Shown here: positions 15,460 through 32,377 of the stretch, one piece after another
Position numbering within the stretch: the stretch's first letter is position 1
Layout of the letters: every line of letters begins with the position of its first letter
Origin: Escherichia phage vB-Eco-KMB43
Sequence record: OR525698.1
Strand: one strand, 5' to 3'
Length of the DNA: 64,000 nucleotides
Program-made: the position numbers and the translations under genes
Notes under the pieces: generated by a model
Seen by the model: the letters and a program-made list of their open reading frames with translations, nothing else
Told to the model about the DNA's origin: nothing
Databases searched by the model: none

Positions 15460-15942
15460 TTTTGCTAAATCATTGCAATATTTTAGTGCCTTAGTTTGAA
15501 ATTCTGCGCTGTTAAGTTCTTCATAACGGTCATAATCACCGTTTAATGCTGCTTTTCTTGCTTCTTGCTCTATCTGCATGTCAGACATGATAATACAGCG
15601 ATCCCGTGCTTTCATCTTCTCAAGTTGTATAAACTCTTCTTTCTGTTTGCGCAATTCTTCTTGACGCTTCTTTTCTTCTCGTGCTTTCTCTTCCCGCGCT
15701 TCTTTGATTGCATCCTTGAACATCTGCGTTTGTGGTGCTAAACCAACTTTAACGCGACCCACGTCTCGACGTTCCATTTTAGAAATAAAGCATGATTCGA
15801 TCTGATCATCACTTGCATATGCTGCTTTACATTCACGAAGCAAGAAAACCGGATCTGATTTAGCATTCATCATAGCTTCCATGTTAGCACAACCAGTAAG
15901 CATGAATGCAGACGCAAGACCAATTAGTTTAATCATTTTCAT
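15457..15942 (-). CDS. predicted lipoprotein (161 aa)
   Basis: N-terminal signal peptide with lipobox LTGC; charged Lys/Glu-rich repeat region. Confidence 0.6.
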   Translation of the reverse strand: MKMIKLIGLASAFMLTGCANMEAMMNAKSDPVFLLRECKAAYASDDQIESCFISKMERRDVGRVKVGLAPQTQMFKDAIKEAREEKAREEKKRQEELRKQKEEFIQLEKMKARDRCIIMSDMQIEQEARKAALNGDYDRYEELNSAEFQTKALKYCNDLAK

Positions 15943-16763
15943 TTAGTCACCTCACCGAAAATTGTAAATTGTCTACGATTCTCATCGCCGAAAGATTCTA
16001 CTACGTCGTTTACCTTGACGCAAGTCCCGCGCGGTAAAATTACTTCACATTCGCAAGGATTCCATGCAATTGACCCAACAACAAAACCTTTATGATCTTT
16101 TACGTCAATTACCCACGATACATTACAAGAATGTTGCATCTTTCCGGTCATCGATTCATATCGATTCTCACAATAAAGGCTAGTGCTGTTTGATAGCCAT
16201 CCTCCAAAGATGATCGGTGTCATGCTGGTCGATACAAAGTTTTTAAAGGTAAACTCCTTATCTTCAATGATGCGCTCTATTGTCTGAATGTCAAGATGTT
16301 GACCGCGATAAAGAGTACCGTTTAACTTTTCGGTTTTATCCATGACACAATCCATCAAATCGACAATCTCTGATATCTCGTCGGTCATGTCTTCTTCCCC
16401 TAAGAGAGCACCATTTACCCATTCGTATTGTTCAGATACATAATCACAGATTGCATTATATTCTGCTGGGGTTATGTTGTTATGTTTGTAATGTTTGAAT
16501 ACATTATCTCCAAAGTCTTCGGAATGTACTTCATACATCACATTAATGATTTTCTTGACAAATCCATAATCTTGTGTCTCGCGCTCAAGGAAGCGGATAA
16601 CCTTCACATAATCATCAAAGTTAATCTGATCGCTGATCATCTCAGTGATCATGTAACCATTAATCCCCTCAATGTCATATGTTTCAATATAATTGTCCAT
16701 ACGTTCCATCATTGATTCGCGTGATTCTTCCGAAAGACGAAAATCCTGTAATTTCTTGAACAT
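15939..16763 (-). CDS. Alt-like ADP-ribosyltransferase paralogue (274 aa)
   Basis: C-terminal region YRGQ...FVSTSMTPIIFGG...ECEVILPRG parallels the Alt catalytic R-S-E region (YR..., FVSTSL, EILLPRG) seen in the adjacent alt gene. Confidence 0.6.
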   Translation of the reverse strand: MFKKLQDFRLSEESRESMMERMDNYIETYDIEGINGYMITEMISDQINFDDYVKVIRFLERETQDYGFVKKIINVMYEVHSEDFGDNVFKHYKHNNITPAEYNAICDYVSEQYEWVNGALLGEEDMTDEISEIVDLMDCVMDKTEKLNGTLYRGQHLDIQTIERIIEDKEFTFKNFVSTSMTPIIFGGWLSNSTSLYCENRYESMTGKMQHSCNVSWVIDVKDHKGFVVGSIAWNPCECEVILPRGTCVKVNDVVESFGDENRRQFTIFGEVTK

Positions 16764-16842: not shown

Positions 16843-18894
16843 TTACATTTTAAATTTATCTGGCATTGCGTCTACAGATACCAGATCAGCGATAAGCTGA
16901 CGTAGAGTTGCCTTATCTGCTTTCTTACGTTCGGTTTTAGCTTCGCTAATGAAGCTGGAGAAAGACAGGTCAGAAGCAGGTTTAATAACACCTTCACGGA
17001 TGAATGCATCACCGTCTGCGATCATCTCGCCAGATTCTTGTAATGCTGCCAGTTCATTTTTGTTCATAATATGTGCCTCAATGTAATAAGTTTCTTGTGA
17101 ATCCGTCGATGCCGTAGCACGAGTTACCGTATCAAAGGATAACACAACACCGCGAGGAAGTAAAATCTCGCATTCTTTGTAAGCAAATGCTTTGTTACCT
17201 ACTGGCAACACAGGGATGTTTTCCGCGCCAGCAATGGAGAAAGCAACATTAGCGCCACCTTCACCGCGAGAGCCAGCCATAGAATCAACACCAGCAACGG
17301 CACTAGCCACGTTTGCATTCCAGCCGCCAAAAATGTTAGGTGCAAGGGAAGTGCTCACATAGTTTTTAAAGTAAAACGCTTTTTGCTTACGTGCAGTTTC
17401 CCACATTTGAGTCCGGAAGTCCATACCACGATACAGAATAGTACCCGGATCAAGTTTAACGCCATAGTTGGAGAAGGCATTATCCAGTGCATCGCACATC
17501 TTGACCAATTCTTCTGGATCTGCGATGCCTTCAAACTCTTCCAGCTTACGATCAGTTAGGAAGTTGTTCATATTGATGTATGCTGCATCGGCATATTCGC
17601 TCAATACAAAACCTTCCGCGCCCGGCAGATCAAGATCAATATCTGCCATCATTTCACCCATGTTGCTAGCAATTGCTTCAAACATACCGGAAGCAACATT
17701 ACGTAGGGCATCGGTTTTAATCTGGGTGATATGACTACGCAGCATTTCAGCTTTTACATCTGCTGGCATAGACTGGTCTACTCGATCCATTGCCAGGGCG
17801 GTGATCTTGTTTTCGAATACTTCCTCGCTCATGATTTCTTTTAAGCGTTTGATTGATGCTGCGATAACTTCCGCAGACAACGGATCATATTGATCCTGAA
17901 CTTTTACCAGTTCGCTTACTGCGTATTTTGCATCTGCTTCGCTTTCAAAAATAGTACGCATGAAACCATAGCGAGTGATAATATCACTTGTCCAGTCATT
18001 CAGAGAACGGGCGGTTGAACGTTCTAATGCTTGACGATCAATCAGAGTATTAAACTGTTTCTTAGGTTCGGCTTCGGTGATATCTTCTTCCGGTTTAAGA
18101 TTAATTTTTTCTGGATGATTCACATAGTCGCTGTTATAGGTCGCTTGAGTTTTCAGCATTTCTTCTTTAGTCAAACGAGATTTAGCCGCTACGCGTTGTT
18201 CTGCTTCCGCGTTTCGTTCTTCTTCTGACACAAGACTAGCCGCATACGCCTCATCTTTAGTCAGAGATTCACCAGTAGCCTTAGATACCCAGCGATCACC
18301 TAAATCACTTTCTACTTTAGTGAACAAGGATTCATCAAGTTTAATCCCTTTAATCTTATCAATCGCCATCCCGCGACGCTTGACAACAACTAAAGCGATC
18401 TTTTTGCTGGTCATTACTTCCTGCTGGAATACTTCAAACTTCGGTGTACGACGCACCAAACGCTCTATAACGCGCTTAACCAGTTCGGTCTTACCTTTCA
18501 TGCGGGATACGTTAAAACGGAACATAACAGCGTCTAATTGCGCTTTACGGGCTGTTTCCATAACCACATCAAAAGCACTTGCCATAACTGCAATCGGGTT
18601 ATCTCCTAGACCATTTTTAAGCTGTACAATACGACCGCTTTTGTTCATTTCGCACAGTACAACATGTGCGGTCTTGTCACCCATACGAATGATTTTAGGT
18701 GTTTTGTTGGTGAAGTTACAAAGACGGACAATCACATCTTTATCGCGTGTCTGTACTGCAAAAAGCTGTTTAGGATTCTGCTTAGGCTTTAAGCACTGTA
18801 CCGGAGCAATACTGCCAAAGTTTTCTTCCTCTTCCGTCAACAGCCATTTCTCGAAAGATTCAATCATTAGATCGTCGATTTCTAAGTTAAACAT
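16843..18894 (-). CDS. alt: Alt ADP-ribosyltransferase (head-packaged)
   Basis: 683 aa (T4 Alt is 682 aa); LFTKVESDLGD and C-terminal FYFKNYVSTSLAPNIFGG...ECEILLPRG match T4 Alt. Confidence 0.85.
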   Translation of the reverse strand: MFNLEIDDLMIESFEKWLLTEEEENFGSIAPVQCLKPKQNPKQLFAVQTRDKDVIVRLCNFTNKTPKIIRMGDKTAHVVLCEMNKSGRIVQLKNGLGDNPIAVMASAFDVVMETARKAQLDAVMFRFNVSRMKGKTELVKRVIERLVRRTPKFEVFQQEVMTSKKIALVVVKRRGMAIDKIKGIKLDESLFTKVESDLGDRWVSKATGESLTKDEAYAASLVSEEERNAEAEQRVAAKSRLTKEEMLKTQATYNSDYVNHPEKINLKPEEDITEAEPKKQFNTLIDRQALERSTARSLNDWTSDIITRYGFMRTIFESEADAKYAVSELVKVQDQYDPLSAEVIAASIKRLKEIMSEEVFENKITALAMDRVDQSMPADVKAEMLRSHITQIKTDALRNVASGMFEAIASNMGEMMADIDLDLPGAEGFVLSEYADAAYINMNNFLTDRKLEEFEGIADPEELVKMCDALDNAFSNYGVKLDPGTILYRGMDFRTQMWETARKQKAFYFKNYVSTSLAPNIFGGWNANVASAVAGVDSMAGSRGEGGANVAFSIAGAENIPVLPVGNKAFAYKECEILLPRGVVLSFDTVTRATASTDSQETYYIEAHIMNKNELAALQESGEMIADGDAFIREGVIKPASDLSFSSFISEAKTERKKADKATLRQLIADLVSVDAMPDKFKM

Positions 18895-26969: not shown

Positions 26970-27011
26970 TTTTGATTCTCCGTTTAAGAAAGTGTGTTTC
27001 GTTTTGATGTG

Positions 27012-27045
27012 TGTAGTATAGGGGATACGTGATCCCCTGTCAACA
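27012..27045 (-). promoter_or_regulatory. early promoter cassette with palindromic spacer
   Basis: Reverse complement TTGACA-GGGGATCACGTATCCCC-TATACT. Confidence 0.6.
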
Positions 27046-27056
27046 ACTTTTTTGAA

Positions 27057-27401
27057 TTATTTTTTCATGAGCTTAATGGCTTCTTCCATAGCCAGCACAT
27101 TTCGATAGTTAGGGTATCGTGTTAGATCGTCATACATTCGCTTAAGGGTGGAAACTTCCTCAAACTCTGGGTTTTCTAGATACAGTTGAACAAATTGTTT
27201 CTCTACCATCTCGGCTTTTAGCTTGTCTGCTTGTTCCTGTTCATATGATTTCGTTGGACCCAACACCAACAAAATGATAAAGGTGATCAACGGGCTAATG
27301 ATCAATGATAGGATAACATAACCAATAACGCTACGGTTTAAACGGCTTGCGTACATGCCTACAAGGAAAACAAAAAGGATATAGATAAACAGAAAGAACA
27401 T
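27057..27401 (-). CDS. small membrane protein (114 aa, two predicted TM segments)
   Basis: Hydrophobic stretches FFLFIYILFVFLVGMYA and VILSLIISPLITFIILLVLG. Confidence 0.55.
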   Translation of the reverse strand: MFFLFIYILFVFLVGMYASRLNRSVIGYVILSLIISPLITFIILLVLGPTKSYEQEQADKLKAEMVEKQFVQLYLENPEFEEVSTLKRMYDDLTRYPNYRNVLAMEEAIKLMKK

Positions 27402-27408
27402 ATAATGG

Positions 27409-27882
27409 TTACTCCTTATTTTCGCGCTCGTACTTTTCGAAATAAAATTCTACTGGCTGGTCGTGGATTGACAGCAAGCCAAAGCGTTTAGCCGCTCGCA
27501 ATCCCATATTGCGCTGAATGTACTTCTGGAAGTTCTCGCGTATACACTTACGCCAGGATTCTAAGCCCATGCAGCTTTTATAAAGATTGCATTGCACACA
27601 TGCCGGATTCATGTTATCAAGTATATCATGCTCCGGTTTATGCATTCCTACAACCTTATACTTCCACGATCCATCATCATTACGGACAATTCGTCCATTT
27701 TCATCATAGACTACCTTTGAGCGTCGCAATACTGGTTTGATGTGGTCTGCGTGCCAGCGATCCCCTAGTTCCTCGCCACAATAGGCACAACGTCCACCAT
27801 ATTTCATTTTCAGGATCTGGCGTTGCTCTTTCTTTGACAATTTTTTAGGTTTAGGGGCTTTCGCCCCTTCATTATCACACAT
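27409..27882 (-). CDS. HNH endonuclease (freestanding, homing-endonuclease-like)
   Basis: CAYCGEEL...HADHIKPV...NMNPACVQCN: canonical CxxC-HxxH-N-CxxC HNH motif; start overlaps the end of the ligase gene. Confidence 0.75.
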   Translation of the reverse strand: MCDNEGAKAPKPKKLSKKEQRQILKMKYGGRCAYCGEELGDRWHADHIKPVLRRSKVVYDENGRIVRNDDGSWKYKVVGMHKPEHDILDNMNPACVQCNLYKSCMGLESWRKCIRENFQKYIQRNMGLRAAKRFGLLSIHDQPVEFYFEKYERENKE

Positions 27883-29377
27883 CGAATACCTCTTTTACTG
27901 TATTTGCAGTGGTCTTGTCGTAGCGAATACGTTTGATGATTGGGAGAAATAAAGAGAACTCCGGTTCATCTTCTTTACGTGATTTGCTGCGAATGTACCC
28001 GTTGCATGTCATCTCAATGACTTTTCCAATCAGGTTATGACGGTCAGCCCATAACATTTCTCGGTCGAGTTCATTTCGACGATCGAACGGAATTACACGT
28101 TCAGTACCATCATCACCTTTTTCGGTTGTAGTGTCGGTTAATCCCGATCCGGTGTTAGTCATCATTCGTCCGCACGCACTACGGACAGTAAAACCGCCTA
28201 CCTTATTGGGGTCTTTACTATGCGGATATACATCAACAATTTCCGCGTCGAAGTCAATCACTTCTTTAAATTTAACCTGATCTTTACTACGGCGATCTTC
28301 AAATACACCATGTAAATTTTTAAGGATAATACCTTCTAAGCCCATGTTGACATAACGATGATATACTTCGCGAGCTTCATCGATATTGTTAACTACAGTG
28401 TTTTCTATGATCTGAACACGAGGATCGTTAAGTTCTTCAACAATCTGTTTTAGTTCTTCGAATCGATCTTTATATTGCTTCGTTGCTTTCTCGTTTCCGT
28501 AATACACATCACGGTCGATAACATCCCAGACAGTGTAAACAATACATTGGGCTTCTTCTTTTGGAATAGTTCCTTTAAGTGATTTGTTGAGGATACCATT
28601 TCCGGTCTGACGATCTGCAACAACGGATTCTTTCACTGCTTCCGCTACTGGCGTTAATGGCATTTCCTCTTCTTCAAATATCCATGACAGAGTACCATCA
28701 TAAACGCTTTCAACGAAGTTCTGCGCTGGTGTTTGCGAAAGGGTAGGCATATATACCAATTCGCCATCTAGAACAATTCCACGGCCTCGTAGACGCTCTA
28801 AAACCGCAAACAAATCATCAAGCCCTTGATAGGTATTACCTGAGCGGGTATAGATTGCTAATGTTTCCCCGTCAATATCAGCCATACCACGAGCGCCATC
28901 GCTTTTAAGTTGTGCATACGCCGGATACTTGATATTAGCAATAGTCTTATCAGAACATGACGATGCAAGGTGGCACGGTTGCTGGGGGATCAGTTTCTTC
29001 CATACCTTGTTTGCAGTGGTAGCGGAACAGCCGCATTCCAGATCACGATTCAGGACCATCATTGCAACTTTAGCATCATCCTCTGACAAGCAAGTCAGAG
29101 TATCGGTAACTAGCTGTAATGCTGCATTACCAGTTACTTGACGCGTGGCAAGTTTATTTTTAAAGACCTGTAATGCACCGGATAAAGACAATACAGACGA
29201 ATAGCGAGACGGTTTATCGTATTTCTTTACGCCAAACGTAACCTGTTTGCAATATGCCAGATAAAAGCATTCTTTCAGCGTTTCATTGCTCGCGGATTCT
29301 TTCAGAATCTTTTCTTTCAGCGATGTTTTGTCTGTTGCTGCAAGCTGATTAATGATATTAAGAATTGACATTTTCAC
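27875..29377 (-). CDS. 30: ATP-dependent DNA ligase gp30
   Basis: 500 aa; FAQLKSDGARG (KxDG adenylation site), LDGELVY, EGIILKN, and overall collinearity with T4 DNA ligase. Confidence 0.9.
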   Translation of the reverse strand: MKMSILNIINQLAATDKTSLKEKILKESASNETLKECFYLAYCKQVTFGVKKYDKPSRYSSVLSLSGALQVFKNKLATRQVTGNAALQLVTDTLTCLSEDDAKVAMMVLNRDLECGCSATTANKVWKKLIPQQPCHLASSCSDKTIANIKYPAYAQLKSDGARGMADIDGETLAIYTRSGNTYQGLDDLFAVLERLRGRGIVLDGELVYMPTLSQTPAQNFVESVYDGTLSWIFEEEEMPLTPVAEAVKESVVADRQTGNGILNKSLKGTIPKEEAQCIVYTVWDVIDRDVYYGNEKATKQYKDRFEELKQIVEELNDPRVQIIENTVVNNIDEAREVYHRYVNMGLEGIILKNLHGVFEDRRSKDQVKFKEVIDFDAEIVDVYPHSKDPNKVGGFTVRSACGRMMTNTGSGLTDTTTEKGDDGTERVIPFDRRNELDREMLWADRHNLIGKVIEMTCNGYIRSKSRKEDEPEFSLFLPIIKRIRYDKTTANTVKEVFDV

Positions 29378-29837
29378 CTCGTTTTGTTAAACGTTCACGA
29401 ATATCATTGAGGATACTACAAAATTCCGATTCAGTCAATATAGTCTTTAACGGATCAGTTCCACCTATGCTATGACGTAATTTCTTATTTCCGGTAGCAA
29501 GTAATGCTTTACAAAATTCTGGGTTATTCCGTGCCATCGTAACAAATGCCAGATGTACCAGTCTGTAATAATGCTCACTCATTCGATGAATCGGGCGACC
29601 CTGAAAATATAACATGTGATTCTCAATCTTTTCAGTTCTTCCGGTTCTTTTTGCTTTGCCACCGTGCATCAAAAAGATTTCTCTTTGTCTCTGAGGGTTC
29701 TTAAATCTTAGCCCCTGTAAAAATCCTTCTGTGCTGTTAATATCGCAGCCAAATAAACGGAATGGTCTTTTATTGAAATTACTCAATTCACCCGATGGAT
29801 AAGGTCCACCCGCATAGATATCAATTTCAGAAGTCAT
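29358..29837 (-). CDS. NADAR (DUF1768, YbiA-like) family protein
   Basis: IYAGGPYPSGELSNFNKRPFRLFGCDINSTEGFLQGLRF aligns with the E. coli YbiA core (INFYSTSDDYGDFSNFAAWPIKVDGKTWPTSEHYFQAQKF). Confidence 0.6.
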   Translation of the reverse strand: MTSEIDIYAGGPYPSGELSNFNKRPFRLFGCDINSTEGFLQGLRFKNPQRQREIFLMHGGKAKRTGRTEKIENHMLYFQGRPIHRMSEHYYRLVHLAFVTMARNNPEFCKALLATGNKKLRHSIGGTDPLKTILTESEFCSILNDIRERLTKRGENVNS

Positions 29838-29991
29838 TGAAACTAATCTCGCTAATCAGAGAGAACGGATCATAATCGTCATTAGGAATATCGATAGTAA
29901 TCGAATGAGGATTTACCCATACACCAAACTGGTCTTCTTCGGTGAATACTTCGGTATGGATTTCGTGGATGTTTACATTCATAGTTTTCAT
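29827..29991 (-). CDS. small hypothetical protein (54 aa)
   Basis: Manual translation MKTMNVNIHEIHTEVFTEEDQFGVWVNPHS...; overlaps the NADAR start by 11 nt. Confidence 0.35.
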   Translation of the reverse strand: MKTMNVNIHEIHTEVFTEEDQFGVWVNPHSITIDIPNDDYDPFSLISEISFNDF

Positions 29992-30044
29992 AATAAAATT
30001 TCCTTAATAATCAATAACTTACAAAATCATATAGCCAAAATATA

Positions 30045-30063
30045 GGCGGGATTATTTCCCGCC
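30045..30063 (-). terminator. candidate terminator downstream of gene 31
   Basis: GGCGGGA-TTATTT-CCCGCC hairpin. Confidence 0.45.
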
Positions 30064-30074
30064 GTTTAAAATCA

Positions 30075-30398
30075 TTAACCGTAAACTACCACAATATTCT
30101 GTTTGTGTGTTACAGTCCATTTCAGGTCGATCTCTTCTTCCTTCTTAACGCCGTTAATAACGTCTGGATGAGGAACTTTATTCATCTTGCCATGTGGCAG
30201 TAAAACAGTTTTACCCAGCAATTCTTTATCTACCGTTTCACCGATATCAATAATCTTACCTACCAGCGGAATCTCGCCCATAGTGCGCTTTTGCTCAATA
30301 ATGATCCCCATAGAGCTTTTTACTTCTGTCCCTGCGCTTTCTGCTTTAGCTTCAATGATCACATAGTCACCAAGTGCTTTAGGAGTTTTAACGGTCAT
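30075..30398 (-). CDS. 31: gp31 GroES-like co-chaperonin for capsid folding
   Basis: 107 aa; position between ligase and cd; GroES-like pattern ...GDYVIIEAKAESAG...GIIIE... comparable to T4 gp31. Confidence 0.75.
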   Translation of the reverse strand: MTVKTPKALGDYVIIEAKAESAGTEVKSSMGIIIEQKRTMGEIPLVGKIIDIGETVDKELLGKTVLLPHGKMNKVPHPDVINGVKKEEEIDLKWTVTHKQNIVVVYG

Positions 30399-30439
30399 AA
30401 TTTTATTACCTCTTCAAATCAATACAGTTTAATGATGAA

Positions 30440-30760
30440 TTATTTATAAATTTCGACGATCTGCGCTGGAGTCAGCCCGTCTACATTAATCAGACTATCA
30501 AGCCCAAAACTACGGAAACCTTCAACTGCAATTTCATATACTGGCAAAGATGTTTCTGATTCTTTACGCGGTTTTTCAACATTCGGAACTAACCACTTTT
30601 CGTATGTTTCAAACGGCATCAGTGCCGGATCTCGCGTGGCGATCATCTCACGGACAGTACCATCTTTCTTAGTAAACTGCAAAGAGTGAGTACCGACCGA
30701 AAACATTTTCTTTAGTGCTTCACGAAGTGCGATATTATCAACTTGTTCAGTCATTATCAA
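30440..30760 (-). CDS. hypothetical protein (106 aa), 31.1-like by position
   Basis: Intact ORF between gene 31 and cd. Confidence 0.5.
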   Translation of the reverse strand: MIMTEQVDNIALREALKKMFSVGTHSLQFTKKDGTVREMIATRDPALMPFETYEKWLVPNVEKPRKESETSLPVYEIAVEGFRSFGLDSLINVDGLTPAQIVEIYK

Positions 30761-31253
30761 TACCCTTCAAATCAGTCAATAATGCTTTTGGAATACGCGT
30801 GATTGTAATATCTGCATTATTCAGAATATCAGCCCAATCACGCCCACCATTTCGATCATATGTGTCGCAATAGTATAGATGTTTAATACCACTGTTTGCA
30901 ATTGCTTTAGCGCAATCTGGACACGGTGAAGCAGTACACCACATACTAGCGCCTTCAATCGATACACCGCTACGGGCAGCAAACAAAATAGCATTTAATT
31001 CAGCATGGATCTCGTTTTTCTGTGACCATGCACTATGCTCTGGTCGTTTTTCTGGGATCATTTTGCCGTCATCATCCAGCCAACCGTTTTTATGTGCATG
31101 ACAGCTACAATTTACTTGCCCTGCTGGAGTTCCGTTAAATCCAGTAGAAATGATTCGCCCGTCTTTTTCGATCAGTGCGCCTACCTTCCACGAAACGCAT
31201 TTAGAGTTCTTTGCGATTAGATAGGCGATCTGCATGTAAGTTTGTGACAACAT
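30747..31253 (-). CDS. cd: dCMP deaminase
   Basis: 168 aa; SWKVGALIEKDGRIISTGFNGTPAG, HAELNAILFAARSG and SPCPDCAKAIANSGIK zinc-binding motifs match T4 Cd. Confidence 0.9.
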   Translation of the reverse strand: MLSQTYMQIAYLIAKNSKCVSWKVGALIEKDGRIISTGFNGTPAGQVNCSCHAHKNGWLDDDGKMIPEKRPEHSAWSQKNEIHAELNAILFAARSGVSIEGASMWCTASPCPDCAKAIANSGIKHLYYCDTYDRNGGRDWADILNNADITITRIPKALLTDLKGIDND

Positions 31254-31274
31254 AATATAATCCTCACATAGTAA

Positions 31275-31478
31275 TTAACCGTATACGCGAAAGTATTCTA
31301 CTGATCCGTCGCTATACTGTTTTACATTGAATGTATTCACACCATGATTATTTCTCATGATGACATATACACTGCGACGTTCATCGCTAAACGGCATAAC
31401 TGGCGCTGGTTCAATATCAACACTAAAACCACGTTTAGCAAGTGCTTCGCCTAATTGCTTGAGTTTATCGGTAAACAT
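31275..31478 (-). CDS. hypothetical protein (67 aa)
   Basis: Intact ORF between cd and pseT. Confidence 0.45.
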   Translation of the reverse strand: MFTDKLKQLGEALAKRGFSVDIEPAPVMPFSDERRSVYVIMRNNHGVNTFNVKQYSDGSVEYFRVYG

Positions 31479-32377
31479 TAAAAGTCTCCGTAGTTAACCT
31501 GAAAACATTCTACACCAATTGAGCGGTACATGTCAACCACTTGATCACGGTCATCTACCGCCAAAACAACATGATAACGCGGTGCAATTTCAGAGAAGAA
31601 GATCTCTTTCTTCACTTCATGATCAGGACGACGATCATTAGTTTCACGTTGAAAGTGATCACTCGGTTCAATACCCTGTTCACGCAACCATTGCAGAGTA
31701 TCTTCTTCGCAAACATCCTCACGCCCTGAGCATGTAATGATACGATAACCATTATCACGATACAGTTTAAGCATTTCGACCACTTGCGGACGAGGTTTAT
31801 CTTCTTTGACCTTTGTCCAGTCAAACGGATGACGACCGCCCTTATCCGCTAATGTCCCATCAATATCAAAGATCACTGCCTTTGGCAGCATGGTATTCGG
31901 TTTGTATACTTCTTGACCCATATATTCCTGCATCAGATAAAATTGGTTGCGCAAATGAGAAAGTGGAATTGCTTTCTCACCGCGATATAAATTACGTTTC
32001 TTTAGTGTCTCAAATGATTCATTGAACACTTGTTCAGTATACACCGCGTTAAATTCTTTTGCAAGTTCTTTGTAGAATACACGATGTTTTTCTTTCAGGT
32101 TGGTATCGGAGATAATGATACTCAATCCGCGTGATAGAGTCTCACGAGCAATCATTCTCTGAATAGACTCTACCAGCTTTTCTTTTTCCTTAGTATACTT
32201 GTATTTCAAATGTGAGTCAACACCAAACAACATAAGACGAAGATCATCACGATTCACATTACGATAATTACTAAACCGTTTACATGTTTCCATCGCCCAT
32301 GTAGTTTTACCGGACCCAGAACAACCAACGGTTAAAATCACTTCACATTTCGGCATTATTTCTCCTTCGGTTTGCAC
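31478..32377 (-). CDS. pseT: polynucleotide 5'-kinase/3'-phosphatase
   Basis: ILTVGCSGSGKTT (P-loop), NRDD, and phosphatase IFDIDGTL...VDDR...VECWQV...GDF match T4 Pnk; true start may be the internal MPKC Met at 32354-32356. Confidence 0.9.
   Translation of the reverse strand: MQTEGEIMPKCEVILTVGCSGSGKTTWAMETCKRFSNYRNVNRDDLRLMLFGVDSHLKYKYTKEKEKLVESIQRMIARETLSRGLSIIISDTNLKEKHRVFYKELAKEFNAVYTEQVFNESFETLKKRNLYRGEKAIPLSHLRNQFYLMQEYMGQEVYKPNTMLPKAVIFDIDGTLADKGGRHPFDWTKVKEDKPRPQVVEMLKLYRDNGYRIITCSGREDVCEEDTLQWLREQGIEPSDHFQRETNDRRPDHEVKKEIFFSEIAPRYHVVLAVDDRDQVVDMYRSIGVECFQVNYGDF

Follow-up and report, generated by a model that had tools for sequence, protein, structure and literature searches.

An AdfN ortholog with arginine at an active-site lysine position, probably an anti-DarTG1 enzyme, in an RB49-like phage

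The DNA analysed here, a stretch of 64,000 nucleotides from Escherichia phage vB-Eco-KMB43 (OR525698.1; called the window below), is a genome segment of a Krischvirus (RB49-like, Straboviridae). Our subject is gene 30.3 on its minus strand, an open reading frame (ORF) that a sequence-only reading had described as a NADAR-family gene immediately upstream of a DNA ligase gene. The 2.7 kb around it matched Escherichia phage FL04 with 100% identity and RB49 with 98.5%. The position next to the ligase gene is seen both in the sequence and in the RB49 annotation, where the same gene, listed as "30.3, gp30.3 conserved hypothetical protein", immediately precedes gene 30 (DNA ligase); it is likewise called 30.3 in phage JSE. 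The local order is rnlA, pseT.3, pseT.2, pseT, cd.2, cd, 31.1, 31, a 54-aa ORF, 30.3, 30 and an HNH endonuclease gene, which is the early cluster of T4 minus several small genes. The ORF is real: it reads from ATG to TAA at exactly the coordinates given, and its homologs are found in many phages. The gene and the parts of it that carry the argument are as follows.

29358..29837, minus strand: the 30.3/adfN ortholog, 159 codons from ATG to TAA, encoding a phage-type, single-domain NADAR protein, a predicted ADP-ribosylglycohydrolase
29727..29729, minus strand: E37 (GAA codon), the equivalent of the catalytic glutamate E36 of T4 AdfN, E88 of the E. coli C7 NADAR and E43 of PnNADAR
29706..29708, minus strand: R44 (AGA codon), at the position of the catalytic lysine, K43 in T4, K95 in E. 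coli C7 and K50 in PnNADAR
29472..29474, minus strand: H122 (CAT codon), the last-strand histidine that marks phage (gp30.3) NADARs
29358..29432, minus strand: the C-terminal helix (residues 136-155 in the AF2 secondary structure) and a short tail

The 30.3 protein matched the Pfam family PF08010 (Phage_30_3) with 132.5 bits, against a curated cutoff of 36 bits (E=1.2e-38, model positions 2-138 of 138), and phrog_652 with E=2.5e-45. Homologs were detected by tblastn in 1509 phage records, from phages of Escherichia, Klebsiella, Shigella, Aeromonas, Acinetobacter, Vibrio and others, and an exhaustive HMMER scan gave 973 cluster representatives at 50% identity. A metagenomic relative, L003, had 69% protein identity and an identical gene order. 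Compared with this syntenic relative, the gene had a dN/dS of 0.12, with synonymous sites near saturation; 30.3 is under purifying selection.

The sequence-only reading had stated that the protein aligns with the YbiA/NADAR core. This was true, and decisive, at the level of the fold, and weak at the level of the sequence. The single sequence matched the Pfam NADAR model with 15.5 bits (E=0.021), below the cutoff of 35.1 bits, and its only NCBIfam match, to "NADAR family anti-phage protein", was also sub-threshold (E=0.023). A profile of 12 family sequences matched YbiA with E=0.12, and one of 68 sequences matched it (2b3w) with E=0.0015 over the SNF...E..Q..K region. Individually, 34 of the 68 family members touched the Pfam NADAR model, the best with 1.1e-6. 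Among the predicted viral structures of BFVD, gp30.3-type proteins (TM 0.87-0.93) ranked first, and dozens of annotated viral NADAR proteins came after them. The predicted structure has the NADAR fold with its core domain only, an alpha-helical core with small flanking sheets. No solved structure of T4 gp30.3 exists, and the PADLOC defence models matched neither the window protein nor T4 AdfN. A phmmer match in the PDB to the C-terminal part of the D-alanine carrier-protein ligase DltA (7vhv_D; E=3.8e-4; residues 45-151, 29385-29705) was treated as chance because the fold searches gave it no support. Membership of the protein in the phage "gp30.3" subfamily of the NADAR superfamily is confirmed.

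The T4 member of this subfamily, gp30.3, has been renamed AdfN, for anti-DarT factor NADAR (PMC11257639; Johannesman et al., Nat Commun 2025, PMC11825919; see also Toxins 2024, PMC11125620). The window protein aligned with it across the full length with 38% identity (E=2e-30). The two share PF08010, a NADAR core of about 150 aa as the only domain, the catalytic Glu, the phage-type His, an intact C-terminal helix and the position between genes 31 and 30. Orthology and the conserved position in the early gene cluster from 31 to 30 are shown. The differences are an Arg for K43 and nine extra C-terminal residues in the window protein; at the locus, 30.3 directly overlaps the ligase gene, with 30.1 and 30.2 absent.

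The active site is conserved with one exception. Glu was present at the E37 position in 157 of 160 family representatives and in all 84 viral loci, and His at the H122 position in 158 of the 160 representatives. Among the same representatives, E37, Q41, A62/K63, R85, H122, T135 and E138 were invariant or almost so. The C-terminal helix is intact, and the alignment reaches the end of T4 AdfN; the helix equivalent to residues 136-155 is missing in the inactive RB69 allele (PMC11257639).

The exception is R44. It lies in an ungapped EGFLQGxK/R motif, 7 residues past the Glu, at a position where the usual Lys contacts the pyrophosphate and the adenine of ADP-ribose. The residue here was K in 146, R in 10 and another amino acid in 4 of the 160 representatives, and K in 78 and R in 6 of the 84 viral loci. 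Arg was found in all Krischvirus copies (RB49 and two IMG/VR Krischvirus contigs), in the 69%-identical relative and in one unrelated T4-like contig of 159.8 kb, while a 62%-identical relative retained Lys. Since Arg is common to Krischvirus and its 69%-identical relative, and Lys is found in the 62%-identical relative and most of the family, the sequences indicate a derived change, fixed and kept under selection, not a recent lesion. R44 keeps the positive charge of the Lys that it replaces. In the E. coli C7 NADAR, the same substitution, K95R, left guanine-ADP-ribose hydrolysis in vitro but abolished rescue of cells from DarT1 (PMC11543638). Because C7 K95R hydrolyses in vitro, an Arg at this position would be compatible with catalysis, although the enzyme might pay a price for it or behave differently in vivo.

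The function of the T4 protein is known from published work. Phage crosses mapped DarTG1 resistance to T4 30.3, and deletion of adfN from T4 or T2 cost about 4 logs of plating on DarTG1 hosts (PMC11257639, PMC11825919). RB69 was rescued by ectopic AdfN, its own allele being 15 residues shorter (PMC11257639, PMC11825919), a truncation that correlates with DarTG1 sensitivity (PMC11257639). The changes E36A and K43A each abolished function in T4 AdfN; the purified protein strips ADP-ribose from DarT1-modified DNA, does not bind DarT1, and is ineffective against DarTG2 (PMC11257639, PMC11825919). Guanine-ADP-ribose hydrolysis by the T4 protein in vitro was demonstrated independently (PMC11125620). 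In vitro, it acts on ADP-ribosylated guanine in both DNA and RNA and is inactive on ADP-ribosylated thymine; ADP-ribosylated cytidine is left uncleaved (PMC12945103). In a transposon screen, 30.3/adfN was conditionally essential only when DarTG1 was present (bioRxiv 10.1101/2025.11.20.689424).

These results support the earlier proposal that a phage NADAR of this kind removes ADP-ribose from DarT-modified guanine and serves as an anti-DarTG factor: for the T4 ortholog, which has the same Pfam family, fold, Glu, His and helix, the activity was shown experimentally. The proposal holds for DarTG1, whose toxin DarT1 modifies guanine, and does not extend to DarTG2, which T4 AdfN leaves unopposed. 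We consider it probable that 30.3 is the Krischvirus ortholog of T4 AdfN in function as well, removing DarT1 ADP-ribose marks from phage DNA. AdfN is a minimal single-domain NADAR N-glycohydrolase, produced early in infection, that cleaves the bond between ADP-ribose and guanine N2 in phage DNA. The cleavage erases the marks that DarT1, the host toxin of the DarTG1 toxin-antitoxin defence, sets on replicating phage DNA, and phage replication can then continue. By analogy, the Krischvirus protein would act likewise on its own phage's DNA, which has canonical cytosine in RB49 and TB34 where that of T4 is hydroxymethylated, and Arg44 would be able to stand in for the pyrophosphate-coordinating Lys.

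Several observations weigh against this assignment. The pyrophosphate-binding Lys is replaced by Arg; the T4 protein with K43A was non-functional, and C7 K95R gave no rescue in vivo. Because the catalytic Lys is Arg here, the efficacy of T4 AdfN in vivo is not simply transferable. T4 AdfN was also poor on phages with unmodified DNA (T5 and Bas25) and inactive in uninfected E. coli (PMC11257639, PMC11825919). Moreover, no Krischvirus is among the published DarTG1 phage panels, in which Bas46 and Bas47 are relatives of RB69, and the searchable literature holds nothing that ties RB49 or Krischvirus to DarTG.

The authors of the AdfN work propose an adaptation of AdfN to hydroxymethylcytosine (hmC) DNA (PMC11257639, PMC11825919). 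We searched with T4 proteins against FL04 1-50000, FL04 114000 to its end, and the window; FL04 113843-113999 (about 160 bp) and an FL04-specific indel stretch lay outside this search. Within this scope, the dCMP hydroxymethylase gp42 was not found, its only match being a td paralog with 23% identity, and neither were the alpha- and beta-glucosyltransferases, AdfA (gp61.2), 30.1 or 30.2. The controls gp43, UvsX, gp56 and Dam were recovered in the same search. The hmC/glucosyl-hmC pathway and AdfA of T4 thus have no counterpart found on the side of the window phage. RB49 DNA is cut by enzymes sensitive to cytosine modification (PMC4041780), and Krischvirus genomes are reported to be without hmC synthases (PMC13390438). 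The T4 result is not directly transferable, because the phage is without gp42 and the alpha- and beta-glucosyltransferases and RB49 DNA is unmodified. With DNA that normally has canonical cytosine, the 30.3 protein, if protective, must normally act on canonical-cytosine DNA. In the searched parts of FL04, the complete genome closest to the window, no homolog of AdfA (61.2) was found, and therefore 30.3 would be the only recognisable anti-DarT1 factor of that genome.

Cytosine modifications are present in the isolate SAP and not in TB34, siblings with 99.96% identity that thus differ completely in this respect, and no gene known for hmC or for a glycosyltransferase is present (PMC13390438). Each of the two is 98.2% identical to window 27800-30500, and the difference between them bears on the DNA substrate that the AdfN homolog meets.

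It is conceivable, though we hold it only tentatively, that the Krischvirus AdfN has been naturally re-tuned, either to work efficiently on unmodified DNA and so to rescue heterologous phages and uninfected cells from DarT1, or to a shifted range of substrates. Phage-encoded NADARs from carriers with unmodified DNA are known: NADAR-Bas32 and NADAR-Bas60 counter DarTG1 (PMC11257639) and neutralise DarT1 even in uninfected cells (PMC11257639). They belong to other clades and were acquired independently; the clade of the window protein is that of AdfN.

A shift of target, in which the R44 protein of this hmC-free phage would reverse a different ADP-ribosylation of bases with the same fold and chemistry, appears rather unlikely. 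Such a target could be set by another host ADP-ribosyltransferase (ART) acting on DNA or RNA, such as a YarT-like or pierisin-like toxin or one that gives guanine-ADP-ribose in RNA; alternatively, the protein could act on DarT1 marks specifically on canonical-cytosine DNA with a broader activity that is not phage-specific, like that of NADAR-Bas32 and NADAR-Bas60. The absence of an hmC pathway from the phage fits this explanation, as does the rarity of a K-to-R change at the pyrophosphate contact (10 of 160), fixed in the lineage and maintained over at least 31% protein divergence. So does the breadth of the superfamily: NADARs of all subfamilies hydrolyse guanine-ADP-ribose in RNA and some hydrolyse cytidine-ADP-ribose (PMC12945103), and NADARs sharing an activity in vitro differ in specificity in vivo (PMC11257639, PMC11125620). 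On the other side, all remaining active-site positions are as in T4 AdfN, the phage-type His accompanies guanine-only specificity in that enzyme, and no alternative toxin is known against these phages.

The subfamilies of NADAR proteins are defined by the last-strand residue, which is His in phage gp30.3, Glu in the YbiA type and Asp in the DarG1 type (PMC11125620, PMC11543638). In DarG1 antitoxins, such as the E. coli C7 NADAR and the G. lovleyi NADAR (8bat; Schuller et al. 2023, PMC11543638), this Asp is catalytic, an N-terminal extension is present and a DarT1 gene is adjacent. In contrast, the window protein has His for Asp and no extension, being a 159-aa core only, and its neighbours are a 54-aa ORF and the ligase gene. 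It does not belong to the DarG1 type; as a phage-encoded protein without an adjacent DarT1 gene, it is an "orphan antitoxin". E. coli YbiA (2b3w) and the P. nicotianae NADAR (8bau) showed about 21-22% identity to it. The YbiA type has a last-strand Glu and riboflavin-intermediate substrates; with H122 in place of that Glu and its sub-threshold Pfam NADAR match, the window protein falls outside this type too. For the same residue we regard as most improbable a YbiA-like housekeeping N-glycosidase acting on intermediates of the riboflavin pathway, the Glu that defines that family being His here. The companion notion, a functionless and decaying remnant, is given the same low probability and runs counter to the low dN/dS and the near-invariant active-site residues.

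In T4, a second enzyme, AdfM (Tk.4), acts against DarTG2: it is a macrodomain protein, with a fold unlike the window NADAR, and its target is thymine-ADP-ribose from DarT2 (bioRxiv 10.1101/2025.11.20.689424). Outside the window, FL04 encodes a macrodomain protein just upstream of tk, the position of T4 tk.4/AdfM.

FL04 PP358550.1 158157-158612 (L086:44158-44613), plus strand: a 151-aa Macro-domain protein (Pfam Macro, 1.3e-6)

Because this protein occupies the tk.4/AdfM position, the phage lineage probably carries both candidate DNA de-ADP-ribosylases, NADAR and macrodomain.

Translational coupling to the ligase gene had been taken by the sequence-only reading as consistent with a DNA-repair context. 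We found no support for this: overlaps are frequent in the region, other genes intervene in T4, and most viral loci have no ligase gene nearby.

29358..29380, minus strand: the 30.3/ligase junction, with a GAGG Shine-Dalgarno (SD) sequence at 29380-29377, a 5-nt spacer, the ligase ATG at 29371 and the 30.3 TAA at 29360-29358

If the ligase gene starts at the ATG at 29371, as it does in the annotation of RB49, the two genes overlap by 14 nt; with the mechanically called GTG start at 29377 the overlap would be 20 nt. The 14-nt overlap is the same in RB49 and L003. However, of 58 pairs of same-strand neighbours in the early region of RB49, 20 overlap, and the ligase overlap is therefore uninformative. 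In T4, 30.1 and 30.2 separate 30.3 from 30. Among 80 IMG/VR loci with a homolog, a T4-type ligase gene abutted it in 3 (the two Krischvirus contigs and one other) and lay 0.8-2.9 kb away in two; none was present within 4 kb in the other 75 (76 of 80 are unlinked if a ligase match 2.9 kb upstream of the homolog is counted as not linked). After this test, ligase linkage was rejected as a functional signal. The adjacency is most simply explained as T4 synteny inherited after loss of 30.1 and 30.2.

It is accordingly very improbable that 30.3 is a repair accessory, processing a ribosyl or abasic-type lesion for the co-translated ligase to seal. Conservation of the 14-nt overlap in the 69%-identical relative would fit such a role. 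In addition to the ordinary nature of such overlaps, the genes that intervene in T4 and the 75 loci with no T4-type ligase gene within 4 kb, the ligase gene has its own GAGG SD sequence, and hydrolysis by NADARs gives back an intact guanine base (PMC11543638), which leaves no nick to seal.

Another suggestion was that 30.3 manages ADP-ribosylation by the phage itself. Two Alt-type ARTs are indeed present, both matching Pfam ADPrib_exo_Tox and T4 Alt.

16843-18894, minus strand: full-length Alt, 683 aa (Pfam ADPrib_exo_Tox, T4 Alt)
15939-16763, minus strand: an Alt-C-terminal-like ART, 274 aa, ART domain only (Pfam ADPrib_exo_Tox 4.3e-16, T4 Alt)

The short ART outscored full-length Alt against the Pfam model; at its position T4 carries no more than short duplicate fragments of alt (alt.-1 and alt.-2). 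One Mod-like ART is encoded elsewhere in the closest genome. All are NAD-linked functions in a single genome, which is the basis for supposing that 30.3 reverses ADP-ribosylation by the Alt or Mod transferases of the phage itself. In T4, the targets of Alt, ModA and ModB are protein arginine side chains, whereas the NADARs characterised to date cleave base-ribose N-glycosidic bonds. T4 adfN is non-essential on K-12, the sole reported phenotype of its loss being DarTG1 sensitivity, and in the window the Alt genes lie about 10 kb from 30.3 with about 30 genes between. Nothing was found in support of such a role, and we give it very little credence.

Other features of the neighbourhood are as follows.

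29827..29991, minus strand: the upstream 54-aa ORF ("31.-1" in the RB49 annotation, AJ550428; phrog_15277), overlapping the 30.3 start by 11 nt
30045-30063, minus strand: a GC-rich hairpin, GGCGGGAAATAATCCCGCC, followed by a T-rich tract, just 3' of gene 31
30440-30760, minus strand: the gp31.1 homolog, with a WYL_2 / SH3-like beta-barrel domain (Pfam 1.2e-9)
27409-27882, minus strand: an HNH endonuclease, 157 aa (Pfam HNH; phrog_2118), adjoining the ligase gene downstream and overlapping its 3' end by 8 nt

The 54-aa ORF had no match in Pfam or NCBIfam and is kept in the 69%-identical relative. Read directly from the sequence, the SD sequence of 30.3 itself is weak, and translation of 30.3 may therefore be coupled to this ORF. 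The hairpin looks like a terminator separating gene 31 from the block of the 54-aa ORF, 30.3 and 30. Scanning 27000-31500 for promoters and terminators gave no more sites than shuffled sequence did, so that no dedicated 30.3 promoter could be assigned; the hairpin was the sole notable site, and no consensus promoter was seen downstream of it. The gp31.1 homolog is labelled "tail fiber protein" in several GenBank records, probably a mis-annotation inherited from a weak PHROG match. The HNH ORF may be a mobile homing-endonuclease insertion; the RB49 annotation notes a similarity of its counterpart to a protein from a Salmonella plasmid. The window is not strictly identical to FL04. From position 30500 to 64000 its coordinates are shifted by about 872 bp relative to those of FL04, and its first few hundred bases were not found in FL04 114000 to its end. 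The window therefore comes from a close relative of FL04 or differs from it by an indel, possibly a mobile endonuclease.

The function proposed here is known in kind, having been published for the T4 ortholog from 2024 on, first as an in vitro assay and a preprint and in 2025 in Nature Communications, and the biology otherwise adds little to the work on AdfN. What is new is a member of the AdfN clade with a natural Lys-to-Arg change in its active site, which is under purifying selection and belongs to a phage that has neither hmC DNA nor AdfA. For the published hypothesis that hydroxymethylated DNA gives AdfN its specificity, an R44 enzyme in an hmC-free phage is the obvious comparison. For annotation, dozens of Krischvirus records gain a likely anti-DarTG1 factor in place of a "hypothetical protein", which is useful for predicting the host range of RB49-like phages in therapy or in screens of defence systems. 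If the Krischvirus AdfN were indeed re-tuned, with either outcome, the hmC dependence of T4 AdfN would be a specialisation of T-even phages and not a trait of the family, and the two proteins would provide a natural sequence pair for mapping the determinants of DNA-context specificity in NADARs.

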